Assembly (NCBI GenBank): GCA_963929525.1
Contig: CAWVJB010000020.1
Location: 2,890 to 66,889, forward strand
Source of the DNA: Bacillota bacterium
GTDB lineage: Bacteria > Bacillota > Clostridia > TANB77 > CAG-508
DNA length: 64,000 bases
Direction of reading: 5' to 3'
Under the pieces are notes generated by a model. That model was not told where the DNA came from and made no database searches. It worked only from the letters and a program-made list of their open reading frames with translations. Below, in pieces: positions 2,834 to 61,417 of the stretch. Both the position numbers and the translations under genes were made by a program. Position 1 is the first letter of the stretch, and each line of letters opens with the position of its first letter.

Positions 2834-2929
2834 CAAATTTTACTAACGTAAAATTTGGCGCTCGAACAATAACGCAGGCTTTAAAATGTTAAGAACAGAG
2901 AAAATATTAAAAAAGCCCGCTATTGTTCT
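2834..2929 (+). repeat. Family F element, copy 1 (TTTTACTAACGTAAAA mini-hairpin plus GAACAATA.CG.GGC/GCCCGCTATTGTTC hairpin)
   Basis: About 95 bp, alignable to 49309-49401 and 61323-61417. The 14-bp stem is followed by ttatttt. Confidence 0.8.
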
Positions 2930-3011
2930 TATTTTATATATTTTGTTATAGAACATTATTTTTTTTATCCAAGAATATAGATTACTCTAAGGATGGCATA
3001 TATATAAGAGT

Positions 3012-4361
3012 TTATCCAACATAATCTGTATAAATGACACGATTCCAGTAATTTAATAAATGCTGTTTTTCTGATTTAGGAACAATATTAATTCTAATAG
3101 CAGAAAAAGGCTTATCATGAGAATAAGTTGTTTCTTCACCATCAGAAGAGGCTCTTAACCAACCAACAGATGGAACATAAATTTGATAAACAATAGAATA
3201 TTCTTCACAATTCTTTAACTGAAAGGCAATTCCAGAAAGACCATATAAATTTTGTTTTGCAATTTCTTGAGGAATAGGATTGGTTTGGTTTAAGCAAGTA
3301 TTGCCAGCTGTATTATGTCCATAGCCACCTAACTGTAAAGTAAATTTACCCAGAAAATGTATAGCATTTTGACTAGAAATGTCAAACCAAGTAGTAGGAC
3401 TAGGTGAATATCCATAGGTATATTTAATTTCAGAAGATTTGCATATAGCACTTGTGTTTTCTCCCCAATAGGTATAATCAAAAACTCTCCCTTGCAATAT
3501 ATGATTATCAATGTCACCATCCAGATAAGTAATGATTCTTTCAGATTTTTTAGAAGAGGAGTCAATAATGGCTTGTTTTCCAGAAATTTCTCCACTATGA
3601 TTAAATTCATTAACAGGATAACCGCTATTATGAGTGGCATAATACAACATGATATTTTTAGCGTGTTGTATATTAACAAAAACTTCGGCTGTGTTTCCAG
3701 CATAATCTGTTATGGTGATAGGATAAGAAATAGGAGAAGAAAATACTTTAGACAAAGAAGAATTTGTATTATAGAAATCCCAACCATTTATAGGTCTTAA
3801 ATTTTCATTAGATTGAATGATATATTGTGATTTATTATTTTCAATAGATAATTCTTTACAAGTAGAAGTAGGAGAAATATTATCAATAGAAATTCCAGTA
3901 TCAAATTTTTGAACATCATTTTTTTGACCAAAAGAATCTTCGATGATGCCTTCTGGAAAAACAATACTTAGATTTCCATTTCCAGATAATTTAGAAAGCA
4001 TAACATCATAAATCAATTCACCAGAATCGTTAGAAAGTAAAAACATATGAATAGATGGATGAGTAAGCGTATCATTTATAAAAATTTGTATATGATCACG
4101 ATTAAATTGATTTATTGCAACATTTTTTTCTGTAATTTTTACTCTAAAAGAAACAACATGTGAAACATTGGCATATTTTTCATATCCTGTATTTGTATTG
4201 GAAATACCTAAAATTTCAATAGTTGGTTTTTTTTGGATTTGAATTTTAGTTGCAGTAAAAGAATCATTAAAGATATATTTTGAAAAACTTATTTGATTAT
4301 GAAATGGTATCCAAAAAAAGAAAATGCAAAATATAAGAATGATAAAAATTTTTTTGTTCAA
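3012..4361 (-). CDS. Membrane-anchored or secreted protein of unknown function with a possible C-terminal ChW-like repeat
   Basis: N-terminal hydrophobic segment followed by FSKY. YQIYVPSVGWLRASSDGEE...AIRINIV resembles a clostridial hydrophobic-W repeat. Confidence 0.5.
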   Translation of the reverse strand: MNKKIFIILIFCIFFFWIPFHNQISFSKYIFNDSFTATKIQIQKKPTIEILGISNTNTGYEKYANVSHVVSFRVKITEKNVAINQFNRDHIQIFINDTLTHPSIHMFLLSNDSGELIYDVMLSKLSGNGNLSIVFPEGIIEDSFGQKNDVQKFDTGISIDNISPTSTCKELSIENNKSQYIIQSNENLRPINGWDFYNTNSSLSKVFSSPISYPITITDYAGNTAEVFVNIQHAKNIMLYYATHNSGYPVNEFNHSGEISGKQAIIDSSSKKSERIITYLDGDIDNHILQGRVFDYTYWGENTSAICKSSEIKYTYGYSPSPTTWFDISSQNAIHFLGKFTLQLGGYGHNTAGNTCLNQTNPIPQEIAKQNLYGLSGIAFQLKNCEEYSIVYQIYVPSVGWLRASSDGEETTYSHDKPFSAIRINIVPKSEKQHLLNYWNRVIYTDYVG

Positions 4362-4707
4362 AAAATCCCTCCTTAAAATGCATATACAATATATACATAG
4401 TTTAAAATTTAATATTTGTTGGAATTTTATACGAAATAAAATATTTGAATATGAATATATTCATTATATAGTGGAAAAAAGAAAAAGTCAAGAAAAATAT
4501 TTAAAGATAATTGTAAGAAAAGTGTCGAATTTTGCGATGAAAAAAACAATAAATAAACATAAACAATTGACAATCATAAAATATGGAAATATAATGTAAT
4601 TATATTTTTTCTATAATTTTTATCATTCATTTTTATCATTAATTTTTAATTTCAAGATGATTTCTCAAATGAACAAAAAAATAAATAAGTAAAGGAGGTC
4701 TGCCTAT

Positions 4708-5292
4708 TTGAATAAAAAGAAAACATTTTTGCTAGTGATTTGTATCATATTAGCCATGACATTTGCTTTTTTGGGAGGAAATGTATTTTCTAAATACTTG
4801 TCAGAAATAACAGGAACAGGAACAGCTGAAATAGCCAATTGGGTTTTTAAAGTCAATGGAAAAGAAGATGCAGTGCAAAACATAAATTTATTATCTACAT
4901 ATCATAATGAAACATTAATTAATAATAAAATAGCACCAGGAACAAGTGGAAGTTTCAATATTGTAGTGGATGCAACAGGGTCTGAAGTAGGAGTAGAATA
5001 TGCTATACACTTTTTAAATGAAAGTGAAAAACCAGAAAATTTAATTTTTATCTATGATAATGAAGAATATTTTACAATACAAGATTTAGAAAAAGATTTA
5101 ACAGGAATAATAAATGCAAATGATGAAGAAAAAACAAGAACAATTACAATTTATTGGGAATGGCAATATGAAACTGGAAACAATGAAAATGAAATTAACC
5201 AAAATGACCAAATTGATACAAATAATGCAAAGCAATTAGAAAACTATACATTTGATATCAATGTCAAAGGTATACAAGTTATGCCACAATAA
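4708..5292 (+). CDS. Secreted protein, paralog A, with TasA/camelysin-like signal region (function unknown)
   Basis: TTG start 9 nt after AAAGGAGG. Signal helix is followed by GGNVFSKY (compare TasA GGGTWAAF). KIAPGTSGSFNIVV and IYWEWQYE are shared with 6099..6722. Confidence 0.6.
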   Translation: MNKKKTFLLVICIILAMTFAFLGGNVFSKYLSEITGTGTAEIANWVFKVNGKEDAVQNINLLSTYHNETLINNKIAPGTSGSFNIVVDATGSEVGVEYAIHFLNESEKPENLIFIYDNEEYFTIQDLEKDLTGIINANDEEKTRTITIYWEWQYETGNNENEINQNDQIDTNNAKQLENYTFDINVKGIQVMPQ

Positions 5293-5537
5293 TTAGGAAT
5301 TTACAAAAGAAATAAAATAGTATGAATATGATAACCCCTAAAAAATATATAAATTAAAATATGGAAATCAAAAATTAATATGGATATTTTTCCAATTAAA
5401 AATTATAGAGAAATATGTAAAACAAAAGCATATGATAAATTATAAAAATATTTAGCAAAACAAATAATCTTTTTTATTCATTAAGAGGACAAGTTCCTCT
5501 TAATGAATATAGTATACGAGAAAGGAGAAATTGAAAT

Positions 5538-6098
5538 TTGAATGTAAATTTTATAAAAAAAACAAAAGGGATGACATTAAAAAATTTAAAAAAAGAACAA
5601 AAGAAATATCATGATAAAAAAAAAGAAATGTTTATCATTTTTAGTGTTTTTATCATAGGAATAACATTTTTTTTGGGTGTCAGTATTGGAAAAGCAGTTC
5701 ATAATACTAATATAAAAAACACAACCCAAATTGCAAAACCAATTTTAGAAGTGGAAAAAGATTCAGAAATCATGATTACAGAAAATAATAAAAAAGGTGA
5801 ATATCATTTTATGGTAAAAAACTTTAATCATACAGATGAGATTTCACAAGTAGATTTAATCTATTACATAGAAATATTAGAAAACAATCTAGATGATTCT
5901 ATTCAATATGAACTATATAAAGATGACAAAAAATTAGAATTGAAAACAAACAAAACAGAACAAATGACATTTCATAAAAATGTAAAAGAAGAACAAAAAT
6001 ATATATTAAAAGTGACATATGATTCTAGTAAAAATAGCATGGAAGATATTATGCAAGAAATACAAATAAAAGTACATTCAGAACAATTAAAAATATAG
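5538..6098 (+). CDS. Membrane-anchored protein of unknown function (beta-rich ectodomain)
   Basis: TTG start after AAAGGAG. K-rich N-terminus, one TM helix, then alternating-polarity strands. Stop abuts the next gene. Confidence 0.55.
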   Translation: MNVNFIKKTKGMTLKNLKKEQKKYHDKKKEMFIIFSVFIIGITFFLGVSIGKAVHNTNIKNTTQIAKPILEVEKDSEIMITENNKKGEYHFMVKNFNHTDEISQVDLIYYIEILENNLDDSIQYELYKDDKKLELKTNKTEQMTFHKNVKEEQKYILKVTYDSSKNSMEDIMQEIQIKVHSEQLKI

Positions 6099-6722
6099 GT
6101 GAGAAAAATGAAAAAAAACAAAAAAATATATATGATGATCATCATCAGTTTGGTATGTATCATTTTGCTGACAATCTATTTTATACAATATGATTTTTTA
6201 CAAGAAGATTTACTATTTTTTCAATTATTCCATTTAAACACATATTCCAATGATAGCTCAGAAAACAATACTTCACAAATTCGTAATACGCAAAAAAATG
6301 CACATATGGAAACAATTTCTTTTTGTGTGCAAAATCAAAATAAAAAATTGAAAGCATTAAATTTAAATAATACTGTAAATAATCAAACTTTAGTAAATGA
6401 AAAAATAGCACCAGGAACAAGTGGTAGATTTGATATTGTATTAAAAAGCTATGAAACTTTAAATTATAAAATTGACTTTAAAAGCGAAAATAAAAAGCCA
6501 ACAAATTTACGTTTCTTTACATCTGAAAATAAAACGACATATAATACCTTAGAAGAATTAGGAAAAAGTTTAACAGGTATTATTTTTCATCATGAAGAAA
6601 AAACAATACCTATTTATTGGCAATGGGATTATGAAATTGATCATCAACAAAATGAACAAGATACCTTAGATGCCGAAGAAATTAAAGAATATCGATTTTT
6701 GATATATGTACAAGGATATTAA
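6099..6722 (+). CDS. Secreted or anchored protein, paralog B of 4708..5292
   Basis: EKIAPGTSGRFDIVL, SLTGII and IYWQWDYE align with paralog A. ATG at 6108 after AGGTGA is the more likely start. Confidence 0.6.
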   Translation: MRKMKKNKKIYMMIIISLVCIILLTIYFIQYDFLQEDLLFFQLFHLNTYSNDSSENNTSQIRNTQKNAHMETISFCVQNQNKKLKALNLNNTVNNQTLVNEKIAPGTSGRFDIVLKSYETLNYKIDFKSENKKPTNLRFFTSENKTTYNTLEELGKSLTGIIFHHEEKTIPIYWQWDYEIDHQQNEQDTLDAEEIKEYRFLIYVQGY

Positions 6723-6800
6723 GGTTACAGTTCAGACCTAATCATCTAAAAATATCATGTATCACACTTACCTTAAGATGATTAGGTCTGAACTGTAACC
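6723..6800. repeat. Family A palindrome, copy 1
   Basis: Perfect 25-bp arms ggttacagttcagacctaatcatct / agatgattaggtctgaactgtaacc with a 28-nt loop, flanked on both sides by TATTAA. Confidence 0.9.
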
Positions 6801-6879
6801 TATTAAGCAGAGAAAGGTTATAAAATCAATAAAAGTACTTGTAAAATGCGAAAAGACATTATATAATAAAAAAGTAGAT

Positions 6880-6954
6880 TGGGGTATCGCCAAGTGGTAA
6901 GGCATCGGACTCTGACTCCGACATTCCTGTGTTCGAATCACAGTACCCCAGCCA
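6880..6954 (+). tRNA. tRNA-Gln (CUG)
   Basis: 75-nt cloverleaf TGGGGTA...TACCCCAGCCA with a U1:A72 pair, anticodon loop CTCTGAC and TTCGAAT T-loop. Close to E. coli tRNA-Gln2. Confidence 0.9.
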
Positions 6955-7078
6955 AAACAAAACGGAACAGGATATAGTTATGCTAGAAATGAAATGTTTA
7001 TCATATCAGAAATTCTCATATAATCATAAATTTGGAACATACTAATATCAAATTTATACAAATATGGAGGATTTAAGA

Positions 7079-7666
7079 ATGACCAACAATATTTCTGGCA
7101 TTACTTTAATTAGTTTGGTGATGACAATTATTGTATTATTAATATTAGTATCTATTACGACATACACTGGAATAGATACAATTCATTCGGCTCAATTGAC
7201 AAAATTTACGATAGAATTAAAAATGATGCAACAAAAAGTGAATGAATTATATGATTGCTATATAAATGGGAGAGTTGTAACAATAAATGGAACAGATTAT
7301 GTGGGAAAAGGAGAATATGCCAACCAACATATAGAAAATGAGCAACAGCAAACAATTCAAATTAAACAAGGCGTTCAAGATATTGGAAAACATATAGAGG
7401 ATTATTTTACAACAAACGAGTTAGAAACAATTTTTTCAATAGAAAAATCAGGAGTAACAGACAAAGAAGGGTATAAATATTATGATGAAAAAACTTTACA
7501 AGAATTAGGATTTACAAATATGAAATATCGTTTTTTTGTAAATGTTGCTAATAGAAGTGTGATATGTACAGAAGGATTTCATGATGGAGAGAATATATAT
7601 TATACATTAAACCAAATTCCAGATGGTGTATATAATGTGCAATATAACAATATAGAAATCAACTAA
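7079..7666 (+). CDS. Type IV pilin-like protein lacking Glu5
   Basis: GGAGGA lies 7 nt upstream of ATG 7079. N-terminus is MTNNISG|ITLISLVMTIIVLLILVSI (prepilin-like leader and helix with Ser at +5). The ORF track start at 7064 is less likely. Confidence 0.55.
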   Translation: MTNNISGITLISLVMTIIVLLILVSITTYTGIDTIHSAQLTKFTIELKMMQQKVNELYDCYINGRVVTINGTDYVGKGEYANQHIENEQQQTIQIKQGVQDIGKHIEDYFTTNELETIFSIEKSGVTDKEGYKYYDEKTLQELGFTNMKYRFFVNVANRSVICTEGFHDGENIYYTLNQIPDGVYNVQYNNIEIN

Positions 7667-7728
7667 TTACCTTTACTTTTTGGTAAAATTAGGATATAAT
7701 GTAACAAGTTAACAAGAAAAAAGGAGAG

Positions 7729-9240
7729 ATGGATATGCAAGAAAATCATGTAAATGAAAATCAAGCAGAAGAATTAGATATCAATCATTTAATGCAAATC
7801 AGACGAGACAAATTAGAAGAATTAAAAGAACAAGGAAAAAATCCATATGAAATTACAAAATTTAATAGAACCAACACAGCAGGAAAAATCAAAGCAAATT
7901 ATGAAGCATTTGAGCAAAAAGATGTAACGATTGCAGGGAGAATGATTGCTAAAAGAATTATGGGAAAAGCATCATTTTGTACGATTCAAGATAGTGATGG
8001 AAAAATCCAAAGTTATGTCAGCATTAATGATTTAGGAGATGAAAGTTATAAAGCATTTAAAACATTTGATATAGGAGATATTATTGGAATTACAGGTTTT
8101 GTATTCAAAACCAGAACAGAAGAAATTTCTGTACATGCAAAAGAAGTGACATTACTTACAAAATCTTTAAGACCATTGCCAGAAAAATTCCATGGATTAA
8201 AAGATATGGACTTAAGATATCGTCAAAGATATGTTGATTTAATTATGAATCCAGAAGTAAAAGAAACATTCATTTTAAGAAGTAAAATTTTAAAAGAAAT
8301 CAGAAAATTTATGGATGAACAAGGATACATGGAAGTAGAAACACCAATGCTTACAACAGTAGCTACTGGTGATGCTGCAAGACCATTTATCACACATCAT
8401 AATACATTAGATTTACAAATGTATTTAAGAATTGCACCAGAACTAAATCTAAAAAGATTAATTGTAGGTGGATTTGATAAAGTATTTGAAATTGGTAAGA
8501 ATTTTAGAAATGAAGGAATGGATATTAAACATAACCCAGAATTTACCAATATGGAATTTTATTCAGCTTACGAAGATTATCATGATATGATGAATCTATC
8601 AGAACAGCTAATTTCAACTGTAGCAAAAAATACCTTAGGAACAACAAACATCACCTATCAAGGACAAGAAATTGATTTAGCTCCAGGTTGGAAGAAAATC
8701 ACCATGATAGATGCCATAAAAGAAGTAACAGGTGTTGATTTCAATACAATCAATACTGATGAAGAAGCACAAGCTTTAGCAAAAGAAAAAGGTGTAGAAT
8801 ATGAAGAAATCAAAAATACAAGAGGACATATTATCAATGAATTTTTCGAAACATTTGTAGAAGAAACCTTAATACAACCAACATTTATCATGGATTATCC
8901 AGTAGAAGTATCACCACTTACAAAAAGAAAGAAAGAAGACTCAAGATTAGTTGAAAGATTTGAATTGTTCATTGGAGGAAGAGAATATGGAAATGCTTAT
9001 TCAGAATTAAATGATCCAATTGATCAATATGAAAGATTTTTAAAACAAGTTGAAGCAAAAGAAAAAGGTGATGAAGAAGCAGGCGGAATGGACGAAGATT
9101 TCGTAAATGCACTAGAAATCGGATTACCACCAACAGGCGGAATGGGAATTGGATTAGATAGACTCATTATGCTATTAACAGATTCTGCTTCCATAAGAGA
9201 TGTATTGTTTTTCCCAACGATGAAACCTTTAAATACTTAG
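7729..9240 (+). CDS. lysS: Lysine--tRNA ligase, class II
   Basis: Full-length LysS-like sequence (OB anticodon domain, RPFITHHN, GGxDKVFEIGxNFRNEG, GLGIGLDRL). Alternative start ATG at 7735. Confidence 0.95.
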
Positions 9241-9312
9241 CAATTTGCAACTATCATGCAAGATAAAAAAAGTATACGAAGGAATTATAAAAAGGGGAAG
9301 ATAGGAGTAAAT

Positions 9313-10053
9313 ATGTTTAATTTTTCATTTGATAGAAGAATCATTTATATAATAATAGGAATTATGGTATTATCTATGGTGGTGCAATATTTAGCAAATC
9401 CAGGGATGTTATTTTCACTATTAATTAGTGTACCAGGTGTATTAATTGCCATCACATTCCATGAATTTGCACATGCATTTGTAGCAGATAAATTAGGAGA
9501 TGATACAGCAAGAAGAGAAGGAAGGCTTAGTTTAAATCCATTAGATCATTTAGACCCAATTGGAACCGTATTATTACTATTTGCGGGATTTGGTTGGGGA
9601 AAACCAGTTCATGTAAATCCAAGAAATTATACAAGAAAAATATCTATGGAAAAAGGAGAAGCACTTGTTTCTATAGCAGGACCTGTCATGAATTTATTAC
9701 TTGCTATCATTTTTGCAATTATATATTATGGCATATATAAATTGGCAGATTCTTCATTTTTGTTATCTACAATAGGTGGAATTTTGATGAAAATTATTGC
9801 TTCAACAGTATCTATTAATGTGGGATTAGGATTATTTAACTTAATTCCATTACCACCATTAGATGGATCAAAAGTCATCATGCCATTTTTACCCTTTAAT
9901 GCAAAACAATGGTTTATAAATAATGAACAAATCTTTTATATTGTATTTGTTGTATTATGGATAACAGGATTAACATCTTATATCATTTCTCCAGGAATTC
10001 AAGCAGTTACAGGTTGGGTATCTAATCTAGCAATGCTGATTTGGGGATTATAA
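9313..10053 (+). CDS. Site-2 protease (M50) family membrane metalloprotease
   Basis: HEFAHAFVADKLGD (HExxH), LNPLDHLDP and NLIPLPPLDG motifs. ATG 9313 follows AGGAG. Confidence 0.85.
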   Translation: MFNFSFDRRIIYIIIGIMVLSMVVQYLANPGMLFSLLISVPGVLIAITFHEFAHAFVADKLGDDTARREGRLSLNPLDHLDPIGTVLLLFAGFGWGKPVHVNPRNYTRKISMEKGEALVSIAGPVMNLLLAIIFAIIYYGIYKLADSSFLLSTIGGILMKIIASTVSINVGLGLFNLIPLPPLDGSKVIMPFLPFNAKQWFINNEQIFYIVFVVLWITGLTSYIISPGIQAVTGWVSNLAMLIWGL

Positions 10054-10068
10054 TATGTGGGAGGAAAC

Positions 10069-11067: not shown

Positions 11068-11151
11068 AAATAAAAAAATTAAAAAAGTATACTCTAAGAA
11101 AAATTTCTTGTATAATGCAATGCTAATTGATATATGAAATGGAGAAAATAA

Positions 11152-11859: not shown

Positions 11860-11865
11860 TGAATG

Positions 11866-17152: not shown

Positions 17153-17533
17153 GTTTTAAATTTAATGAAAAGCAGCAATCTGCACATTTTTATAGAAATA
17201 ACAACCCTCAACGTACAGAAGTACGCCCTCGGCTTGTTATTTCTATAAAAATGCACATCTTACTACTTTTGATTAAATTATGCGAATCAGATGAGAATTC
17301 AGCATCTAGCACATTTTCGTAATTTATTTCAAACCTCGATGTACAAATGTACACCTTCGGCTTGAAATAAATCACAAAAATGCACTATATAATAAATCTA
17401 ATCGATTTAGAAAGAATGCACATCTTACTACTTTTGATTAAATTATGTGATCAGATGAGAATTCAGCATCTTGCACATTTTTATTTTATTCATCAAACTT
17501 CGACGTATAGACATATTACAAAAAAACTTTCAT
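17139..17533. repeat. Family I repeat block between T-box terminator and glyQS
   Basis: Perfect 16-bp terminal inverted repeat atgaaagtttttttgt (17139-17154) / acaaaaaaactttcat (17518-17533). Internal ~95-bp direct repeat at 17251 and 17416, plus hairpins sharing cctcggcttg. Confidence 0.8.
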
Positions 17534-18986: not shown

Positions 18987-19026
18987 ATGAACTTTAGGGA
19001 AATTCCTTAAAGTTCAATTTTTATTG

Positions 19027-19157
19027 TATAGGAAACAATACGAAACTTTAAGTTACTTAGGCTCAAAGTGAAAATAAATATTAAAATTTTATTTTTAAAA
19101 GAAAAATTGACGCTTATCTTGACTCTATATGGATTTTCCGTATCCAACAAGGTTAAG
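19027..19157. repeat. Family G composite (module R4 + inverted module R8)
   Basis: R4 as at 15936. R8 gaaaaattgacgcttatcttgactctatatggattttccgtatccaacaaggttaag is the reverse complement of 24136-24209 and 50544-50618. Confidence 0.8.
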
Positions 19158-19240
19158 TTTTTCTTATTGAATAGAAAAAATACTATGATTTCTCTATATT
19201 TTATGATATATTAGATATACTACATTATATGAGATTAAAT

Positions 19241-21715: not shown

Positions 21716-21910
21716 GATAATTTTGGGATGGACTCAATTTTCCATTTTTAAATTGAGAAATCTTAAAAATATAGAATATAAAGTCAATATACGATTTTGT
21801 ATAAGCTAAATTTGAATTTAAATACGCAAAATCGTTTTATTTTTATATTCTATATTTTTTATCTTAATGAAATTAGAAAAAAGGGAAAAATGAATTAGTT
21901 CAAAATTCTT
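21716..21910. repeat. Family E-related degenerate palindrome (mini version)
   Basis: Core cgattttgtataagctaaattt...aaatacgcaaaatcg is shared with 24690-24840 and 54400-54550. Nested arms aaaaatatagaatataaa / tttatattctatattttt. Confidence 0.65.
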
Positions 21911-21911: not shown

Positions 21912-21947
21912 AAAATGTCCCAAACAGAAACGTCCCCAATAGGACAT
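21912..21947 (-). repeat. Family C hairpin, copy 2
   Basis: aaaatgtcccaaacagaaacgtccccaataggacat. On the minus strand it directly follows, and shares A residues with, the sspH TAA. Confidence 0.85.
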
Positions 21948-24000: not shown

Positions 24001-24257
24001 AGGTTGCCAAAGGGGACGGGTTAAAATGGCAACTTTTCAATTTTAAATTAAGAATGTTATTGATTAATAAGAAAGGCGTGCATTAACGAAATCAAAGATT
24101 TCGATGCACACATGTGAAGACTGCTTCGCAGTACTTCACGAATATAAGAAGCCTAACCTTGTTGTATACGGAAAAATCTACATAGGGTCAAGATAAAGGT
24201 CGATTTTTCCTATACAATAAAAAAGTTGCCATTTTAACCCGTCCCCTTTGGCAACCT
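24001..24257. repeat. Family B palindrome, copy 2 (arms enclosing other modules)
   Basis: Perfect 37-bp arms aggttgccaaaggggacgggttaaaatggcaactttt. Interior carries module R8 (24136-24209) and two GC-containing hairpins. TTAA on both flanks. Confidence 0.9.
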
Positions 24258-24278: not shown

Positions 24279-24593
24279 ATGGAAAATAGAAGATTTATAG
24301 AAATCGATGAAGAATTTATATGTGATAATTGCGGAAAAAAGGTTCCAAAACTAGGCTATTCTTGTAGAGACCATTGTCCATATTGTTTACATTCTAGACA
24401 TGTGGACAAAAATCCAGGAGATAGACAAGAAACTTGCCATGGGGATTTAGAGCCAGTTTCTTTAGAAATTGATGGAAAAAAAGGTTATGTGATTATTTAT
24501 AGATGTAAAACTTGTGGAGCAATTAGAAAAAATAAAGCAGCGAAAGATGATAACATGGATTTAATCATAGATTTAAGCAGTAAACAAATCTGA
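24279..24593 (+). CDS. RNHCP-domain protein
   Basis: CDNCG...RDHCPYCLHSRHVD...CKTCG cysteine pattern of the RNHCP family. Confidence 0.7.
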   Translation: MENRRFIEIDEEFICDNCGKKVPKLGYSCRDHCPYCLHSRHVDKNPGDRQETCHGDLEPVSLEIDGKKGYVIIYRCKTCGAIRKNKAAKDDNMDLIIDLSSKQI

Positions 24594-24939
24594 AACGTTG
24601 AGAACGTGCCAAATCGTTCCAAAATGTGCCAAAAGGGACAGACCTTAACCTATCCACCAAGGGGACTTGTGTTTATATAAAATCATTCACAATTTTGTAT
24701 AAGCTAAATTTTCATAGAATTCTAAAAGAAAAAGATGTATTCATGCACTCAGACCCTCTCGTAACGAGAGTACCGTGCAATTCGTACATCTTTTTCTTTA
24801 AGAATCTCTATATTCAAATTTAGATACGCAAAATCGATTCATTCTTTTATATAAACACAAGTCCCCTTGGTGGATAGGTTAAGGTCTGTCCCTTTTGGCA
24901 CATTTTGGAACGATTTGGCACGTCCCTAACGTTTCAGAT
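24588..24939. repeat. Family E palindrome, copy 1 (352 bp)
   Basis: Arms atctgaaacgtt.agggacgtgccaaatcgttccaaaatgtgccaaaagggacagaccttaacctatccaccaaggggacttgtgtttatataaaa and their complement. Centre ctctcg-taa-cgagag near 24763. Confidence 0.9.
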
Positions 24940-27405
24940 TTCTTTATTCAAATTTCCATTTGTATAATGGCTACCGTCAAACCTTTGATTATTAAGCACT
25001 CTGTGAATAATTTCATTGATTTCTTCAATGGTTTCATCCAAAACATCAATTCTTGCATAATCAACATTGAATTCTTTGGGATAAATAGAGGTGATCTTAC
25101 TATTAAAAATCGTTGTAACTGTTTGAATATTATCAGGTAAAATTCTAAAATTCATATGTAAACGGTCTTTTAATTCATAAATATTATTGGTAATACATCT
25201 TTGCTTACAAGTTGGATAACATTTATCGGTTTCACCTAAAAGACAATAATTCATATTTAATAATGGTGTTCTACCATAAACGATAATTTCATTTGGTAAT
25301 TCTGCACAATTACACAAATCATGAATCATTTTTCTATTTAATTCAGGAGATATGGTATATCGGCAAATTCCTAAATTTTTTAATTCATTGATTGTATGAG
25401 AGTTATATACATTAAAGGTGTAATTGGTAATTAATTCTAGGTTTGTATTAAGATTTGCAAAAAGTGTATGTAATAATTTTATATTACAAATATTTGAAAT
25501 GACAAATCCTTTAATATGATAATTACTTAAAGTGGTTTCTATATTACTAGATAATAGATTTTTATAATTTGATTTGATAATAGTTGGCATATAAATGTAT
25601 ATATTAAATTTATCATCCAGAATATGTAAAATTTCTTGATAATCTTTCATAGAAAAATATTTTAAAGGGATATATACATTTTCAATATCATGAAGTTGTG
25701 TATAATCAAAATCCTTATGCAAAATGTTTAATAATAAAGAAATTTTTGTCTTTTTGATAGAAGAAATAGGCTGTTCCAAATCTTCCTTTTTTACTAGCTT
25801 GTCGATTTCTTTAGTTTCTTTTTTACTTGCAAAGATATTTTTATTAATAATAGAAGAATTTCTTTTCATTGTTCTTATGGCATATAGTTCTACCATTTGT
25901 AAAATCGTTCTTCTTAAATCATTTAATGTACTTAACTTCGGAATAAATACATTATGATCTAATTCGATATCTAAAGTTTTAAAAGCATAAGGAGTAGAAC
26001 CAGTTTTTGAAAATTGTGATATCACTGTATTTTTATCTACTGGTCTGGTGATAGCTTTTAAAGGAAGAATATCACTAGTATATTGTATATTTAAATCTTT
26101 ATATAATTCCATATTACTAGCAGATGTTACTGTAATAGAAATCGGTTTATTTTCCTTAATCACAATATGGCAATTTAAAAGTACTTTTCGATTTTCCTTT
26201 GCACAACTATTTTGTGCCAAAAGATTTAATTTTTTAGAACTCATTTTGAAAATCTGATTTCCTAATTTGATATTTCCTTTCATCCTACCAATTACAACTG
26301 TTTGACCAATTTCTGTAAATTTAATATTTTTCATATTTGTATCCATTAATTCAGAAATGGTATAAGTTCCTTCTTCTTTTTCTAAAGAAATGGTATCACC
26401 AATACCGATAGGTTCATTTAATTTAACCGTAATATATCCTTTTTTGGCATTATATTTTTGAACTTTACCTAAGAATAATCCCATATTGTTTGGCTTTTCT
26501 TTAAAGACTAAATTTCGGTTAGCTTCATTGCTTAAGTGACCAGAAGAAGACATACCTCTATTAAACACTTGTAATAATTCTTTCTTATCATCTTCATCAA
26601 TGATATATTCATTATCAGACAAGGCTAAATCTATATATTTTCGATAAATTCTAGTAACCGTTGCTACATATTCAAGTGATTTCATACGTCCCTCTATTTT
26701 AAAAGACTTTACACCAGCTTGAATTAAATATGGAATAAATTCTAAACCGCATAAATCTCTTGTACTTAATAGATATCCTAAATTGATAGACTTTCCATTT
26801 TCTAATAATTCAAAAGGAAGTCTACAAGGACCTGCGCATTTTCCTCTATTTCCAGAACGTCCACCTAACATACTAGAAAATAGACATTGTCCAGAATAAG
26901 AAATACAAAGTGCTCCATGGATAAAGGTTTCTATTTCAATATTTGTATTTTTACAAATATAATCAATTTCATTAACAGAAAGTTCTCTTGCAAGAACAAC
27001 TCTTTTAAATCCTAGTTCTTGCAATTCTAAAGCTCCATTTAAATTATGGACAGTCATTTGTGTACTAGCATGAATTGGTAAATCAGGAAATGCTCTCATA
27101 AGAGCCATAGCCAATCCTAAATCTTGAACAATAATGGCATCAATTCCAAATTCATAAGCTTTTTTGGCTACATGCATAGCAGATTCAAATTCTGTATCTG
27201 TTACTAAAGTATTTAATGTTAAATGGGTTTTAACACCACGGAGTTTTGCATATTGAATGGCTTTTTCTAAATCTTCAAGAGAAAAATTGGTAGCAAAAGC
27301 TCGCGCACTAAACATATCGGCACCAAAATAAACACTGTTAGCACCATTTTGTACAGCAGCTTTTAAACATTCAAAATCACCAACAGGAGAAAGTAATTCT
27401 ACCAT
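24934..27405 (-). CDS. U32-family peptidase-like protein (long form with DUF3656-like C-terminal region)
   Basis: MVELLSPVGD...AVQNGANSVYFG...ARELS, a typical U32 N-terminal barrel; 823 aa. Confidence 0.85.
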   Translation of the reverse strand: MVELLSPVGDFECLKAAVQNGANSVYFGADMFSARAFATNFSLEDLEKAIQYAKLRGVKTHLTLNTLVTDTEFESAMHVAKKAYEFGIDAIIVQDLGLAMALMRAFPDLPIHASTQMTVHNLNGALELQELGFKRVVLARELSVNEIDYICKNTNIEIETFIHGALCISYSGQCLFSSMLGGRSGNRGKCAGPCRLPFELLENGKSINLGYLLSTRDLCGLEFIPYLIQAGVKSFKIEGRMKSLEYVATVTRIYRKYIDLALSDNEYIIDEDDKKELLQVFNRGMSSSGHLSNEANRNLVFKEKPNNMGLFLGKVQKYNAKKGYITVKLNEPIGIGDTISLEKEEGTYTISELMDTNMKNIKFTEIGQTVVIGRMKGNIKLGNQIFKMSSKKLNLLAQNSCAKENRKVLLNCHIVIKENKPISITVTSASNMELYKDLNIQYTSDILPLKAITRPVDKNTVISQFSKTGSTPYAFKTLDIELDHNVFIPKLSTLNDLRRTILQMVELYAIRTMKRNSSIINKNIFASKKETKEIDKLVKKEDLEQPISSIKKTKISLLLNILHKDFDYTQLHDIENVYIPLKYFSMKDYQEILHILDDKFNIYIYMPTIIKSNYKNLLSSNIETTLSNYHIKGFVISNICNIKLLHTLFANLNTNLELITNYTFNVYNSHTINELKNLGICRYTISPELNRKMIHDLCNCAELPNEIIVYGRTPLLNMNYCLLGETDKCYPTCKQRCITNNIYELKDRLHMNFRILPDNIQTVTTIFNSKITSIYPKEFNVDYARIDVLDETIEEINEIIHRVLNNQRFDGSHYTNGNLNKEI

Positions 27406-34354: not shown

Positions 34355-34390
34355 TGTCCTTTTGGGGACGTTTCTGTTTGGGACATTTTT
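34353..34390 (+). repeat. Family C hairpin, copy 3
   Basis: aatgtccttttggggacgtttctgtttgggacattttt. The first two A residues belong to the polC TAA. Confidence 0.85.
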
Positions 34391-37960: not shown

Positions 37961-38008
37961 TGTTACAGTTCACACCTACCTTAAGATGATTAGGTCTGAA
38001 TTGTAACC
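37961..38008. repeat. Family A, copy 2 (left arm internally deleted)
   Basis: tgttacagttcacacctaccttaagatgattaggtctgaattgtaacc aligns to 6723-6800 minus about 28 bp. Confidence 0.75.
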
Positions 38009-38095
38009 GTAAAAGCAGAATATTTCAATATTTTTTTCAATTTGACCTAGAAATTATTCATTACAAATGATATAATGCAAACAGAAAAAACAATA

Positions 38096-38131
38096 AAAAA
38101 TGTCCCAAACAGAAACGTCCCCAAAAGGACA
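38096..38131 (-). repeat. Family C hairpin, copy 4 (inverted, in the amylase 5' leader)
   Basis: aaaaaatgtcccaaacagaaacgtccccaaaaggaca, ending 8 nt before the amylase RBS. Confidence 0.85.
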
Positions 38132-39590: not shown

Positions 39591-39814
39591 TTTTAAGTTT
39601 CGACATTTTTGCAGGTGAGGTGCGTTATTTTTTGAATAATTTCCTCGGCTTGCTACATAGATGATAACTTCTAAGTTTTTAATAAGCGAGCCTCTCGCTG
39701 TTCACGCTTCATCACTTATTAAAAACTAAGAATTTATACATTTATTCCACGGCACATTCGTCAATTTATTCAAAAAATAACGCACCTCACCTGCAAAAAT
39801 GTCGAAACTTAAAA
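39591..39814. repeat. 224-bp palindrome with 49-bp perfect arms
   Basis: ttttaagtttcgacatttttgcaggtgaggtgcgttattttttgaataa (39591-39639) and its exact complement (39766-39814). The interior is imperfectly palindromic and shares cctcggcttg with family I. Confidence 0.9.
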
Positions 39815-42676: not shown

Positions 42677-42805
42677 TGATGATTTTGGGTGATTTTGGGT
42701 GATTTTGGGGACGGAGCAAAAAATCATCATCTGAATGTTAATGATAAAATTAAAATAATCAAGATTTAAAAATGATGATTTTTTTCTCCGTCCCCAAAAT
42801 CATCA
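42677..42805. repeat. Family D palindrome, copy 1
   Basis: Arms tgattttggggacggagcaaaaaatcatca / tgatgatttttttctccgtccccaaaatcatca. The left edge carries gattttgggt x3 (42681-42710). Confidence 0.9.
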
Positions 42806-43658: not shown

Positions 43659-43777
43659 GATGATGATTTTGGGGACGGAGCAAAAAATCATCACTTGTGA
43701 TTAATAATAAAAAAAATTTAATAGATAAATGTAAATTTAAAAGTGATGATTTTTTGCTCCGTCCCCAAAATCATCAC
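43659..43777. repeat. Family D palindrome, copy 2
   Basis: 35-bp perfect arms tgatgattttggggacggagcaaaaaatcatcactt with a 44-nt AT-rich loop. Confidence 0.9.
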
Positions 43778-49308: not shown

Positions 49309-49401
49309 GCATTTTACTAACGTAAAATTTGGAGCCAAATAATAAAACGGGATTTGAAATGTTATAAACAGAAAAATATTAAAAAAACCCGCTATTGTTC
49401 T
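49309..49401 (+). repeat. Family F element, copy 2
   Basis: gcattttactaacgtaaaatttggagccaaataataaaacggg...aaacccgctattgttct. Confidence 0.8.
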
Positions 49402-49480
49402 TTGTTTATATTATCACGTTACATGATGATTGTAAAAAAATAGGAGCTTATATAAAATTTATGTCAAAATTATCATTTTT

Positions 49481-50494: not shown

Positions 50495-50740
50495 AAAAGT
50501 TGCCAAAGGGGACGTGTCATTTTGGCAACTTTTATAAAATAGATTCACGAATGTAAGAGGCGTAACCTTGTTGTATATGGAAAAATCCACATAGGGTTAA
50601 AATAAAAGTCGATTTTTCTTTTGAAAATAAAATATAAGAAATTTATTTTCACTTTGAGCCTAAGTAACTTAAAGTTTCATATTGTTTCCTATTCAATGAA
50701 AAAGAAAGTTGCCAAAATGGCACGTCCCCTTTGGCAACTT
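50495..50740. repeat. Family B palindrome, copy 3 (arms enclose G modules R8 + inverted R4)
   Basis: Arms aagttgccaaaggggacgtgtcattttggcaactt / aagttgccaaaatggcacgtcccctttggcaactt (one T.G mismatch). Interior 50544-50695 matches R8 and R4. Confidence 0.9.
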
Positions 50741-53479: not shown

Positions 53480-53720
53480 AGTTTCTGTTCAGACTAGTAT
53501 ATAAGGGGGAAGTATTTATAAAGTATTTATTACTCGGTTCAATACAAATATTAAAAAATTCTAAAATCATTTTATGGTGACTTTTCACTTACTTCTCACT
53601 ACGTTCGACGTGAACATTTTCCAAAAAAAGATTTAAGAATTTCTAAATATTTTCCAATCACATTCATAATGAAATAATTTATAAATACTTCTCCCTTATA
53701 TACTAGTTTGAATAGAAACT
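53480..53720. repeat. 241-bp long palindrome (K)
   Basis: agtttctgttcagactagtatataagggggaagtatttataaa pairs with tttataaatacttctcccttatatactagtttgaatagaaact. The three mismatches are all G.T on the + strand. Confidence 0.85.
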
Positions 53721-53858: not shown

Positions 53859-54305
53859 ATGGTAGAAAAAAATAATAAATTAACAATAAGAGTGGCAGGC
53901 ATTGTACCCGTGGATAATGGATTTATATTTATGCATAGAAAAAAAGTAAAAAGGAATAAGGATTATGAGGAATACTATACTTTCCCAGGAGGACATTTAG
54001 AAAATGGCGAAACATTAGAAGAAGGAGTTATCAGAGAAATTAAAGAAGAATTCGGTATAAAGGTAAAAGTAATAAAGAAATTATATGAATTAGAAAATAA
54101 TAAATTGAATATGAAAGAATATTTCTTTTTATGTGAATATATAGAAGGAAAATTTGGAACAGGAGATGGAGAAGAATTTTTCAATAATCCAGAATATAAA
54201 GATTCTGGTGAATATATTCCAGAAATTATGAAAAAAGAAGACATATCAAAAATTGTGTTATTACCACCAGAAATAAAAGAAAAGTTTTTAAAAGATTTCT
54301 GTTAG
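53859..54305 (+). CDS. NUDIX hydrolase
   Basis: GGHLENGETLEEGVIREIKEEFG Nudix box. ATG 53859 follows GGAGGG. Confidence 0.8.
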   Translation: MVEKNNKLTIRVAGIVPVDNGFIFMHRKKVKRNKDYEEYYTFPGGHLENGETLEEGVIREIKEEFGIKVKVIKKLYELENNKLNMKEYFFLCEYIEGKFGTGDGEEFFNNPEYKDSGEYIPEIMKKEDISKIVLLPPEIKEKFLKDFC

Positions 54306-54637
54306 GGACGTGCCAAATCGTTTCAAAATGAGCCCAAAAGGGACAGACCTTAACCTTTTCGTTCCAAAGGAACCTGTAGTTATATAAAGTCACTCACGAT
54401 TTTGTATAAGCTAAATTTTCATAGAATTCTAAAATAAAAAAAATGTATTCATGCACTCAGACCCTCTCATAACGAGAGTACCGTGCAATTCATACATTTT
54501 TTTATTTAAGAATTTCTACATTCAAATTTAGATACGCAAAATCGATTCGTTTTTTATATAACTACAGATCCCTTTGGAACGAAAAGGTTAAGGTCTGTCT
54601 CTTTTGGGCTCATTTTGAAATGATTTGACACGTCCTC
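54302..54637. repeat. Family E palindrome, copy 2 (336 bp)
   Basis: ttagggacgtgccaaatcgtttcaaaatgagcccaaaagggacagaccttaacc... and its complement. The central ~150 bp is nearly identical to copy 1. Confidence 0.9.
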
Positions 54638-54716
54638 AAAAAACAAAAAAAAAATCAAAAATTTGTTTGACATTTTTTTGTTTGTATGATATGATGAGAC
54701 AAAATAGGAGAATGGA

Positions 54717-55443: not shown

Positions 55444-55690
55444 TTAGTAAGTTATAGTTCGGACCTAAGTAGTCTTCCAGGGGGGATAGGTTATATTTTC
55501 AAGCGTTCGAATGCGACCAGAATAGTTTTACAAATTCTTAGGATAAAAGCACAAAGGATCCTGTTTCCAGGGATTGTTGTGTTTTTATTCTTAGAATTTG
55601 TTAAACGGGAATTGGCGGGTAGTCGAGAACCTTAAAAATATAACCTATCCCCCTTGGAAGATTACTTAGGTCTGAGCAGTAACTTAGTAA
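55444..55690. repeat. 247-bp long palindrome (L) with family A-like termini
   Basis: ttagtaagttatagttcggacctaagtagtcttccaggggggataggttatatttt pairs with aaaatataacctatcccccttggaagattacttaggtctgagcagtaacttagtaa. Confidence 0.85.
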
Positions 55691-59984: not shown

Positions 59985-60021
59985 TGTCCTTTTGGGGACG
60001 TTTTTGTTTGGGACATTTTTT
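59983..60021 (+). repeat. Family C hairpin, copy 5
   Basis: aatgtccttttggggacgtttttgtttgggacatttttt, sharing AA with the TAA stop. Confidence 0.85.
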
Positions 60022-60054
60022 ATGGTATAGAAAAAGCACTTTTCCTATACCATA
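60021..60054. repeat. Family G minimal palindrome, second copy
   Basis: tatggtatagaaaaagcacttttcctataccata. Confidence 0.75.
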
Positions 60055-60061
60055 AAAAAAC

Positions 60062-60187
60062 AACGTTGCACAGAAAAATTGCTATGCAATTTTTCGCGTC
60101 GACAAATCTTTATGCTTCTTCGAGAACTTAAATATATATAGTTAAGTTAGAAAAGTAGAGAAAAGTTCTCGCGAAGCGAGATTTGTC
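60062..60187 (+). repeat. Family H element, copy 2
   Basis: Differs from 35628-35750 at only three positions (tac/tat, atattt/atcttt, a TA indel). Confidence 0.85.
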
Positions 60188-60399
60188 TGGTATTGCATTT
60201 AGAAATGTTTTCTTTTGAAAATTTTGAAGATGAATAAAAGATAACAAAAATATTAAGATAATATAAAAAATAAATGAATAAAAGGCATCGTTTTGAACTA
60301 TACCCCAAAAAGTAGAGTTCAAAACGATGCCTTTTAAAAGTGTGACAAGTATGTCGTTTAGCTAATTTAAATATGTCATATTCGCCATATTTAGAAAAG

Positions 60400-61077
60400 C
60401 TAATCTCTTCTCTTTCCAAAAATAGAAAGAATCCTTAAGAAAATGTTGATAAAATCAAGATATAATTGCATAGCACAATAAATATATATTTTTTCTTGGT
60501 CAATATTAGGTTCTAATTGTAAAGCTTTTATTTTATTAATATCATAAACAGTAACTCCAAAGAATACTGATAAAATTACCCAATCTAGTATTAAGTCAAA
60601 CATAGAACTTTTAAAAATAAATAAGTTTACTAAGCTCAGAATTAAACCAATAATCAAAAATACATTTAGATAAGTTCCCCAACTGCTTAAGTCTTTATTT
60701 GTTTTATATCCGATCAAACTTAAAATACCAAAAATCAAAGCAGAAGCAATAAATAAAGTAATGATTGAGTTTAATTCAAAAACAGCAAAAATAACAGACA
60801 GTGTGACTCCATTTAGTGCAGCATATACAAAATACAGAATGCCAACAATAACTGGTGGTAATTTTCTAAATAGAAGGCTAAATAGCAAAACAGCAATAAC
60901 TTCTATAATAAGTAATCCTGTAAAAGAACCTTCTAATGCGATTGTATAAAATAATCCAGAAGAATAGGTATACCAAGCGATAAATGCTGAACCCAATAGA
61001 CCTAAGAACATCCAGAAAAATGTTTTTCCAAAAAGTTTATTCTCAGTAGACATATTTTGTACTTCGTTTTCTTCCAT
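60400..61077 (-). CDS. Bax inhibitor-1/YccA family membrane protein
   Basis: Seven TM helices, FFWMFLGLL..., typical BI-1 length. ATG 61077 follows AAAGGGG. Confidence 0.8.
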   Translation of the reverse strand: MEENEVQNMSTENKLFGKTFFWMFLGLLGSAFIAWYTYSSGLFYTIALEGSFTGLLIIEVIAVLLFSLLFRKLPPVIVGILYFVYAALNGVTLSVIFAVFELNSIITLFIASALIFGILSLIGYKTNKDLSSWGTYLNVFLIIGLILSLVNLFIFKSSMFDLILDWVILSVFFGVTVYDINKIKALQLEPNIDQEKIYIYCAMQLYLDFINIFLRILSIFGKRRD

Positions 61078-61188
61078 ATCAAAACCCCTTTCCATATTAT
61101 ATAAATTTAGTATACAAATAAAATAGAAAATATGCAATATATAAAAGTAAATTGTTAAAATATGACTAAATTTATTGTTAACCGTATT

Positions 61189-61297
61189 GTTCTTGTATAG
61201 GAAACAATATGAAACTTTAAGTTACGCAACTCAAAGTGAAAATAAATTTCTCACATTTTATTTTCAAAAGAAAAATCGAGTTTCCCTATACAAGAAC
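61189..61297. repeat. Family G element (R4 core flanked by gttcttgtatagg / cctatacaagaac)
   Basis: 13-bp terminal inverted repeat encloses an R4 copy (61196-61276). Confidence 0.8.
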
Positions 61298-61322
61298 GTC
61301 GCTTTGCTCTAACCATTTCACA

Positions 61323-61417
61323 CAAATTTTACTAACATAAAATTTGACGCCGAACAATAATGCGCGCTTTAAAATCTTAGGAATAGAGAAAATATAAAAA
61401 AAGCCTGCTATTGTTCT
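61323..61417 (+). repeat. Family F element, copy 3
   Basis: caaattttactaacataaaatttgacgccgaacaataatgcgcgc...aaagcctgctattgttct. Confidence 0.8.

Follow-up and report, generated by a model that had tools for sequence, protein, structure and literature searches.

What drives the accumulation of palindromic DNA between the genes of a bacterium when no transposase lies among those genes? A 64,000-nt stretch of the genome of an uncultured gut Clostridia bacterium (the window; 28.3% G+C) poses this question. Its housekeeping genes include lysS, a TsaD-like gene, efp, glyS behind a T-box leader, ABC-F and polC, it further carries gmk, rpoZ, uvrA, lexA, a spore germination protease and YtxC, and its spacers hold palindromic repeats that are joined, inverted and nested within one another. 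Most of these repeat families are organized around one hairpin type, which the original prediction for this DNA had not singled out. We propose, with a probability that we put at about 0.7, that the repeats are the non-autonomous hairpin population, similar to repetitive extragenic palindromes (REPs) and REPINs, of a single-copy, vertically inherited Y1 (HUH) transposase encoded elsewhere in the genome, a REP-associated tyrosine transposase (RAYT) of the kind also called TIRYT.

When the window was compared with itself by BLASTN (E<=1e-3), 6,059 nt proved self-similar in direct or inverted orientation, against 80, 0, 0, 0 and 0 nt in five block-shuffled copies. The intergenic share of self-similar or palindromic DNA is 4,131 nt, or 6.5% of the window and 35% of its 11.8 kb of intergenic sequence, and an element-by-element sum gives ~4.3 kb. 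These values bear out the original prediction that ~7% of the window (~4.4 kb) is modular palindromic DNA, and the modularity, the nesting and the deletion series that it had described, including the miniature version at 21716, are likewise all present in the window. Ten contigs from 10 samples, built by several assemblers, reproduce window positions 1-19,240 unbroken at 99.6-100% identity, a segment that takes in seven elements; the repeats are therefore not assembly artifacts. Near-identical contigs are present in many gut metagenomes, and the repeats are genome-wide, with more than 107 loci in at least 27 related metagenome-assembled genomes (MAGs), which are titled uncultured Clostridia, Eubacteriales or Clostridium sp. 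and whose isolate or contig names indicate chicken, goat and other samples. All families except the palindrome type at 6723 and the local repeats at 17159-17507 recur at other loci of these related genomes (loci and contigs from them bear L codes below). We found no point in support of an assembly artifact or of purely local duplication, and the agreement of the ten contigs and the presence of the families in many genomes leave either one a negligible probability.

Viral contigs gave no match to the repeats. At gathering thresholds Rfam recognized two tRNAs only in the window, and at E<=1 it added the T-box and spurious microRNA-precursor matches on palindromes. No Rfam family accounts for the repeats or for the G+C-richer cores of some palindromes, and a known RNA family as their source was rejected.

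A 31-nt hairpin with a fixed loop motif

The basic unit of the system is a 31-nt imperfect hairpin with a stem of 5-9 bp and a loop of ~13-21 nt, and the loop opens, after 0-4 A/T bases, with the heptamer GGGGACG at its 5' side. This heptamer occurs 15 times in the window versus 0.37 times expected; all 15 copies are intergenic and all 15 occupy the same position in the hairpin. In 842 kb of related loci we counted 241 GGGGACG hairpins. At least four unrelated stems (TGTCC, GTTGCCAA, GATGATTTT and AGGGA) have this geometry in common: the TGTCC class reads TGTCCawttGGGGACGtttctgtTTGGGACA, and the other classes are GTTGCCAAaGGGGACGggttaaaTTGGCAAC, GATGATTTTGGGGACGgagcaAAAATCATC and AGGGAttttGGGGACGgactcatttTCCCT, plus a few rarer ones. 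If the heptamer is numbered 0-6, position -9 pairs with +21 and so on through -5 with +17 in all classes, such that the stem sequence varies with its pairing kept, and the heptamer and the spacing stay fixed.

Covariation across 122 distinct GGGGACG contexts, drawn from the window and the 842 kb of related loci irrespective of pairing, robustly supports this geometry. The five outer pairs are formed in 83.3% of cells versus 50.2% after shuffling (none of 500 shuffles reached 83.3%), changes occur on both sides in 5/5 outer pairs, and the signal peaks at register 0 and collapses when the partner columns are slid by one position. A loop motif that is conserved and held at a constant distance inside a stem free to vary is characteristic of structures that proteins recognize. 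A scan for the geometry together with a T-rich tail returned the loop heptamers GGGGACG (182), AGGTTCG (23) and AGGGACG (15). AGGTTCG defines a second, B-type hairpin with the 31-nt geometry unchanged, of which there are 23-31 copies in the sampled loci and two in the window (61483-61551). Loci fetched without regard to the hairpin carry 0.11-0.23 units per kb, and the RadA gene of one relative lies on a 1.56-Mb contig, a hint of genome size; extrapolation from this density gives roughly 170-360 hairpins per 1.56-Mb genome.

The units are arranged in a strongly biased way. Among pairs within 300 nt, 57 are convergent versus 3 divergent, with 35 further close tandems. Most units form inward-facing inverted doublets that enclose 40-300 nt with other palindromic modules as cargo, and the partner arms of a doublet are almost always of one class, with private substitutions in common.

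Their position relative to genes speaks in part for another explanation, in which the hairpins are functional RNA or DNA signals (a terminator, an mRNA-stabilizing stem-loop or a protein-binding site) kept by selection or gene conversion, and their proximity to a RAYT gene is coincidental. In 126 of 242 units (52%) the 5' end, read on the GGGGACG strand, comes after the stop codon of a gene with the same orientation (median distance, 3 nt), and in 30 it abuts that codon directly, as the solo copies of the window after glyS (18952), polC (34355) and an ABC-transporter gene (59985) also do or nearly do. The T-run end falls near the end of an open reading frame (ORF) in only 30 cases. A T-run follows the stem, the RNA folds at -10 to -13 kcal/mol in the predicted geometry, and a binding protein would suit the conserved loop heptamer. 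Because of the terminal T-run and the sense position right after the stop codon, we predict a secondary role for many copies, probably in terminating transcription or in stabilizing mRNA 3' ends. As the whole explanation, however, the signal reading is improbable. It does not sit well with identical or near-identical sequences at hundreds of unrelated sites in at least 27 genomes, with orthologous spacers that differ in the presence and type of element, or with inverted doublets that also stand between co-directional genes. The 5' end lies beside the start of a gene reading away in 37 cases, and 15% of units are antisense in 5' untranslated regions (UTRs). Position and T-run fit a terminator and the stems are modest, but the loop of 13-21 nt exceeds the 3-8 nt permitted by a consensus terminator scan, which did not report the canonical hairpin and returned one F1 copy through an alternative short stem. 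Finally, two RAYT paralogues, each flanked by its own hairpin type in conserved synteny across eight lineages, are hard to ascribe to coincidence.

A Y1 transposase bracketed by the hairpin in related genomes

The original prediction had stated that no transposase is present. For the window this stands, as a scan of ~40 of its ORFs against Pfam or NCBIfam found no transposase domain; beyond the window it does not, as related genomes carry a single-copy Y1 gene flanked by the same hairpin. We found this gene by asking which ORFs sit between convergent hairpins 0.4-4 kb apart. An ORF of ~257 amino acids (aa) does so in three MAGs (L070, L086 and L109) and matches Pfam Y1_Tnp with E values of 1e-15 to 1e-17. 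Its score on the NCBIfam RAYT model, 61-74 bits, is well above the 20-25 bits that it reaches on the IS200 model. Across 25 homologues, H62 of its NHVHL (HuH) motif is invariant and H60 is kept in at least 90%, and Y119, H121, N123 and P124 of the YIHQNP tyrosine motif and W137, S138 and S139 of the WSSY motif are invariant. A search of the PDB with the single sequence returned no match. The AlphaFold model (mean pLDDT, a confidence score, 89) has its best PDB fold match in 4ER8, an E. coli RAYT with its REP hairpin (E 7e-8; TM score, 0.71; root-mean-square deviation, 2.8 A), and the TnpA proteins of IS200, IS608 and ISDra2 rank under it; among the structural searches this fold match was the decisive one. 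About 115 residues past the Y1 core are modeled as helices and end in GTSKAQIARVLGINRKIVER; this C-terminal extension matches no Pfam family at E<=0.01.

The locus is remarkably stable. The order MreB, MiaB-like, small ORF, RAYT, radA, disA is kept in seven orthologue groups, down to 56% protein identity, and all seven are bracketed by inverted repeats that carry GGGGAC. A single-copy RAYT flanked by an inverted repeat is present in L070, L086, L109, L125-L134 and L135-L137, and its two ends are inverted copies of one hairpin; the flanking repeats contain GGGGACAG in L135 and L137 and GGGGACAC in L136. An IS200/IS605 or PATE identity is ruled out by a score of 20-25 bits on the IS200 model (cut-off, 55), by the single-copy conserved locus and by the one hairpin at both ends. 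A palindrome of the form AAAAGTATAGCA-(8-22 nt)-TGCTATACTTTTT lies ~60-150 nt upstream of every RAYT-A start, even at 56% protein identity (L070, L086, L109, L125 and L135-L137), and may control the transposase as an operator or as a structure in the leader. In two distant lineages the radA that immediately follows the RAYT appears as a pair of ORFs (L135:3342-4707 and L137:3338-4727), which could reflect a frameshift, a sequencing error or a real split.

A paralogue, P0152 (RAYT-B), is 58% identical to RAYT-A and is bracketed by 2+2 inverted copies of TGTCGCATTAGGTTCGTTTGTCTATGCGACA (TGTCGCATTAGGTTCG...GCGACA), whose heptamer is AGGTTCG in the same 31-nt geometry. RAYT-A thus pairs with GGGGACG hairpins and RAYT-B with AGGTTCG hairpins, one repeat type per paralogue, and the two B-type hairpins of the window have the same geometry and nearly the same sequence as those that flank the paralogue in L121-L124. 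P0152 probably lies on the same contig as the lysS region of a sister lineage, as its longest recorded contig and the contig with that region have the same length (311,551 nt). Next to the hairpins downstream of the paralogue, on one contig only, is an IS110-family transposase gene (DEDD_Tnp_IS110 / Transposase_20; L124:7077-8240). IS110/IS1111 elements are known to target REP-like hairpins. Genes for DUF285/PARCEL-repeat surface proteins, a family otherwise typical of Mollicutes, occur in the window (35970-37448) and adjoining the RAYT paralogue (L121:1-4707; >6,000 aa).

A census of the DNA around the hairpins bears on a further possibility, that the repeats are classical miniature inverted-repeat transposable elements (MITEs), deletion derivatives of a DDE-type insertion sequence (IS) whose terminal inverted repeats (TIRs) are the hairpins or the TATAGGAAA/GTTACAG termini. 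Many elements do have terminal inverted repeats, the insertion at 60022-60187 is flanked by the 5-nt direct repeat GGTAT, and an IS110-family transposase stands beside the RAYT paralogue in L124. Clustering of 993 ORFs in ~900 kb of hairpin-proximal DNA, however, revealed no multi-copy ORF, no transposase besides the Y1 genes and no parent IS; the large clusters are orthologous housekeeping genes (MiaB, DacA and ClpB). The only protein genes bracketed by hairpins 1.0-1.3 kb apart are the RAYT and one ordinary BaxI gene, and target-site duplications are not consistent. We regard a MITE origin as very improbable.

Nesting, turnover and the possible growth of palindromes

Most families other than the hairpin are its cargo or its neighbors (Table 1). 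In seven other loci, F4 consists of an AGGGA-class hairpin doublet around a conserved palindromic shell and a variable tip, often enclosed in turn by TGTCC-class hairpins. The whole F4-type composite occurs at two loci of one MAG, CALXXJ (L019 and L068), and therefore moves, or is copied, as a unit. In the window, F4a folds as a single hairpin, the F4a and F4b hairpins are ~170 bp long, and the two copies differ by many paired (compensatory) differences, complementary indels included. The mini element at 21716, whose assignment rests on F4a/b and on the full copies seen in L019, L022, L056, L068 and L078, has lost the tip of these giant palindromes, and its hairpins have decayed. The doublets at 24003 and 50499 have their arms and F7 cargo in common, and 50499 adds F2 nested within F7. 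Three palindromes that the original prediction had called unique (39591, 53480 and 55444) are real and are single within the window, but their cores recur elsewhere: that of 39591 is 83% identical to L075:1382-1500, and that of 55444 is 76% identical to an element adjoining the RAYT gene in L109, with unrelated arms. The F3 copies of the window number three (2833, 49311 and 61322; 65-85% identity) and have matches in 8 other loci.

Table 1. Repeat elements of the window, with their immediate setting and some counterparts in related genomes (W, window)
Position	Strand	Element	Setting and counterparts
2833..2941		F3 copy: 9-bp hairpin, then hairpin with 19-bp stem	between convergent genes
6723..6800		palindrome F6 (GGTTACAGTTCAGACCTAATCATCT... 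and complement)	just after stop codon, upstream of tRNA-Gln; no match in related loci sampled; shorter relative at 37970-38016
11867-11897, 11940-11970	+, -	GTTGCC-stem GGGGACG inverted doublet	42-nt spacer; arms 35/35 complementary; orthologous spacer has single hairpin in L011, doublet with compensatory changes in both arms in L013
14476..14650		~175-nt palindrome, GTTACAC...GTAAC termini, G+C-richer core	core recurs at L088; present in W, L011 and L012, 14-nt right-end remnant only in L013
15925..16017	+	F2 copy: TATAGGAAA-type terminus and ~70 nt cargo	L013 has family F5 in this spacer instead
17159..17507		local palindromic/tandem expansion in glyS leader	between T-box (16927-17119) and start codon
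18952..18982	+	solo GGGGACG hairpin, TGTCC stem	1 nt after glyS stop codon; T-run follows
19015..19167		composite of F2 (19015-19107) and reversed F7 (19108-19167)	absent from L031 orthologous spacer
21716..21900		mini F4: degenerate class-4 hairpins and palindromic shell, central tip deleted	
21916..21946	-	solo GGGGACG hairpin	abuts stop of short minus-strand ORF remnant
24003..24255		GTTGCC-stem doublet with ~190 nt cargo: core 24056-24135 and F7 24135-24223	core recurs in 7 other loci
24581..24946		giant palindrome F4a, 366 nt	arms 102 nt, 96% complementary; -219 kcal/mol, z -30
34355..34385	+	solo GGGGACG hairpin	begins at first base past polC stop codon
35579..35750		F5 copy: TATAGGAAA hairpin and palindromic modules	89% identical to L013 copy at different spacer
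37970..38016		short F6 relative, left arm shortened	
38101..38131	-	solo hairpin, antisense	alpha-amylase 5' UTR, abutting ribosome-binding site; 36/36 complementary to 34355-34390
39591..39814		palindrome, 52-nt arms (98% complementary), 120-nt core	
42698..42804		GATGAT-stem GGGGACG doublet	upstream of rpoZ-like gene; L113 orthologous spacer without hairpin
43662..43775		GATGAT-stem doublet	between gmk and uvrA; arms 41 nt, 98% complementary
49311..49413		F3 copy	
50499..50738		GTTGCC-stem doublet: F7 (50544-50632) with reversed F2 cargo (50614-50702) inside	three nesting levels
53480..53720		palindrome, 49-nt arms (92% complementary), 143-nt core	core homologues in 8 other loci
54301..54639		giant palindrome F4b, 339 nt	just upstream of lexA; -176 kcal/mol, z -22
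55444..55690		palindrome, 60-nt arms (87% complementary), 127-nt G+C-richer core	
59985..60015	+	solo GGGGACG hairpin	first base past ABC-transporter stop codon; conserved in L024
60022..60187		F5 copy, insertion relative to L024	site flanked by GGTAT direct repeat
61184..61290		F2 copy with complete inverted termini GTTCTTGTATAGGAAAC / GTTTCCCTATACAAGAAC	
61322..61429		F3 copy	
61483..61551	-	two tandem B-type hairpins TGTCCCATTGCATTCG..., TGTCGCATTGGGTTCG...	5' UTR of AlkD-like gene

From one sister lineage to another, a given spacer may hold an element, lack it or hold one of another type. L011 and L013 have a hairpin immediately past the stop codon in the A24>M24 spacer, which is empty in the window. 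At the udk-like>RNHCP spacer (window 24003), five lineages (window, L031, L073, L096 and L117) have five hairpin arrangements. L024 lacks the F5 copy at 60022-60187 and the F2+F3 block at ~61183-61445, and in place of the gmk>uvrA doublet L113 has 66 nt of unrelated sequence between identical flanks.

How might one transposase have shaped this landscape? If it works as TnpA of IS608 and E. coli TnpA-REP do (PMC3479197, PMC8266576), it would recognize the hairpin as folded in single-stranded DNA, with its specificity set by the loop heptamer, and would cut and rejoin the DNA such that doublets and their enclosed sequence are copied to new AT-rich intergenic sites. The TATAGGAAA hairpins, F2, F3, F5, F7 and the shells and tips of the giant palindromes would be carried as cargo or inserted into existing palindromes, and we propose that the onion-like nesting arises because modules ride or insert in this way. 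Mismatch correction or fold-back copying would keep the two arms of each palindrome identical. A more sweeping version is tentative and, taken whole, somewhat doubtful: the Group 1/subclass 2.1/TIRYT class, the largest among RAYTs, would drive a dense, recently active REPIN population in gut Clostridia and read, in place of a tag at the hairpin foot, a loop heptamer that changes along with the RAYT paralogue; the lineage would have turned these hairpins into its main gene-end signals, and the palindromes would grow by fold-back copying within the same single-strand reaction.

Some of the turnover points instead to host-driven palindrome growth, that is, in-place fold-back (template-switch) inverted duplication around a hairpin nucleus with intra-palindrome repair and without a transposase, which would leave the RAYT at most the dispersal of the 31-nt hairpin. 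This explanation overlaps our favored one and competes with it only for the non-hairpin modules and the origin of the nesting. The glyS leader of L013 lacks ~270-300 nt present in the window; its native segment is single-copy and is a full match to window 17461-17529, with shorter pieces matching 17297-17317 and 17182-17193 (direct) and 17409-17395 (inverted), and the ~300 extra nt of the window contain partial copies of that segment in both orientations. At the RNHCP<U32 spacer, the site of F4a, L073 and L096 have 93-106 nt with the inner arms and the right outer arm only, whereas the window has both outer arms. The paired changes and complementary indels between F4a and F4b are easier to obtain by arm-to-arm copying than by independent compensatory mutation, and the element at 55444 and its L109 relative combine a common core with unrelated arms. 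Local duplication, on the other hand, cannot disperse sequence, and the same composites of doublet, shell and tip lie at unrelated loci, including L019 and L068 of one genome, just as F2, F3, F5 and F7 recur at non-orthologous spacers in different lineages. The dispersed identical composites thus argue for movement as units, and the glyS leader and the F4a site argue for in-place inverted duplication. Fold-back growth without a transposase is in our judgment unlikely, if far from negligible.

Several observations weigh against a RAYT-driven origin and have to be set beside the evidence for it. The link to the transposase is one of position and co-variation only, and the evidence for mobility of the repeat is indirect, namely the presence/absence differences at orthologous spacers. 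In the window lineage the RAYT was not located by way of the P0127, P0152 and P0140 cluster members and a RadA search, which yielded no contig in common with those of the window lineage; it is seen only in sister lineages at ~85-92% nucleotide identity and in more distant ones. The protein scores 61-74 bits on NCBIfam REP_Tyr_transpos, under the model cut-off of 80, and its profile-to-PDB match to 4ER8 is weak (E 0.08). The GTAG (GT[AG]G) foot tag of REPs is absent upstream of the stem, where there are A/T-rich flanks only, and some stem classes fold weakly as DNA (-2 to -7.5 kcal/mol). The ends of F3, F5, F6 and several long palindromes lack a GGGGACG hairpin, which makes the RAYT link of these families indirect, and the glyS-leader expansion and the F4a site resemble local inverted duplication of native sequence rather than transposition. 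Several empty-site comparisons, such as gmk>uvrA, show replacement rather than clean insertion, and a search of the empty sites for a consistent target-site duplication or signature yielded the single GGTAT case at 60022-60187.

Other features of the window deserve mention in their own right. The T-box before glyS (78 bits, E 3.5e-15, under the Rfam gathering score of 93) lies ~450 nt from the start codon; with palindromic and tandem copies in between, the riboswitch-controlled transcript would have to read through them. Four palindrome cores (55504-55630, 39643-39762, 14510-14625 and 24056-24135) are G+C-richer than their surroundings and 76-91% conserved between lineages, and could be small RNA genes or captured fragments. 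In the 900-nt "spacer" at 21447-22349, short ORF fragments on both strands accompany the mini-F4 element and a solo hairpin, as if repeats had invaded the remains of genes. In the window lineage uvrA may be a pseudogene or a frameshifted gene: it is divided into two ORFs (43873-45612, 579 aa; 45761-46702, 313 aa) with a 148-nt gap between them. The 670 nt after it (46703-47371) have no long ORF and resemble decayed coding sequence. Three tandem ORFs of ~190-205 aa (4708-5292, 5538-6098 and 6099-6722), the first and third of them paralogous, and the 449-aa ORF at 3012-4361 have no Pfam or NCBIfam match, and their synteny is kept in sister lineages.

Comparison with known systems

REPIN-RAYT systems have been discussed as long-lived, vertically inherited replicators, and nearly all that is known of them was learned in Proteobacteria and on RAYT groups 2 and 3. 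The lineage described here would add a second test case, phylogenetically remote, in the Bacillota, with a genome of ~1.5 Mb, 28% G+C and repeats in about one-third of its intergenic DNA, as well as a natural substrate for the large RAYT class that bears a helix-turn-helix (HTH). It would also offer a built-in specificity experiment: two paralogues, two loop heptamers and one geometry. On the practical side, assemblies of this common gut clade from metagenomes break up at the repeats, which also record variation between strains at almost every spacer.

The original prediction had likened the elements to small non-autonomous repeats of the BOX, RUP, Correia, REP and RPE type. It was right in this, and among its analogies REP is the one that fits. 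BOX, RUP, Correia, ERIC and RPE elements are likewise small, non-autonomous, intergenic palindromic repeats, and BOX is modular too. They are attributed to mobilization by DDE-type IS or have no known driver, and we know of none that is built on a hairpin with covarying stems and a fixed loop motif or tied to a Y1 transposase. The GGGGACG system, in contrast, is hairpin-based and Y1-linked, a distinction drawn from descriptions of those families.

Closer at first sight are the CGTC-tagged REPs (Di Nocera et al. 2013, PMC3733652), given that the reverse complement of our heptamer begins with CGTC and that those repeats too are mostly head-to-head dimers. They have a terminal tag, a stem of 8-9 bp, a loop of 4-5 nt, a CCA tail and no associated transposase (PMC3733652). 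In our hairpins CGTCCCC lies inside a loop of 13-21 nt and there is no CCA tail, which rules out this identity.

With the classical REP/REPIN-RAYT systems of E. coli and Pseudomonas (Nunvar 2010, PMC2817692; Bertels & Rainey 2011, PMC3116915; Messing 2012, PMC3479197) the likeness extends to short, high-copy, extragenic imperfect palindromes that are mainly inverted doublets, a RAYT that is single-copy and passed on vertically, a preference for the 3' ends of genes, BIME-like mosaic arrays, and 4ER8 as the best structural match. Those systems are defined by RAYT genes that stand between their own repeats, with one repeat type per paralogue (PMC6006769, PMC2817692), and this is the picture seen here. 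The differences are as clear: no GTAG tag stands 5' of the stem and the conserved bases lie in a large loop, the host belongs to the Bacillota, not the Proteobacteria, and has a small, AT-rich genome (28% G+C), the doublets carry palindromic cargo to ~370 nt, and the protein has an extra C-terminal domain.

The system comes nearest to the TIRtrons or TIRYTs, RAYT-like genes flanked by inverted repeats with GGGGWSAS, some of which are moderately abundant and form dimers (Di Nocera et al. 2013, PMC3733652). TIRYTs correspond to TnpA-Y1 subclass 2.1 and to the Group 1 of Bertels, long HTH-bearing proteins with Y---NP (Quentin et al. 2018, PMC6006769). That study states that it identified no REP-like sequences beside subclass 2.1 genes (PMC6006769), and Group 1 RAYTs were noted in Clostridia with flanking 16-mers that occur ~12 times genome-wide (Bertels et al. 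2017, PMC5581495). Neither study reports repeat families of this sort in Firmicutes or Clostridia, and our full-text literature searches turned up no account of a repeat population like this one in Clostridia. Common to TIRYTs and our system are a low-copy RAYT-like Y1 gene, flanking TIRs with GGGG[AT][CG]A[CG], which L135-L137 match exactly, and a long protein with Y---NP and HuH motifs and a WSS serine motif, whose C-terminal extension, modeled as helices, may end in an HTH-like segment in our system; some published TIR families are also repeated and dimeric. The window type, GGGGACG[TG], departs from the TIRYT motif at position 7 only. What differs is that here the inverted repeat is itself a fixed-geometry hairpin with covarying stems and is highly abundant (0.11-0.23 per kb).

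Set beside the published classes by its features, the system displays most of the traits by which REP-RAYT systems are defined: it is REP/REPIN-like in operation and of TIRYT type in its protein and motif. It is unusual in its host, in a loop-located motif with fixed geometry, and in the density and nesting of its repeats.

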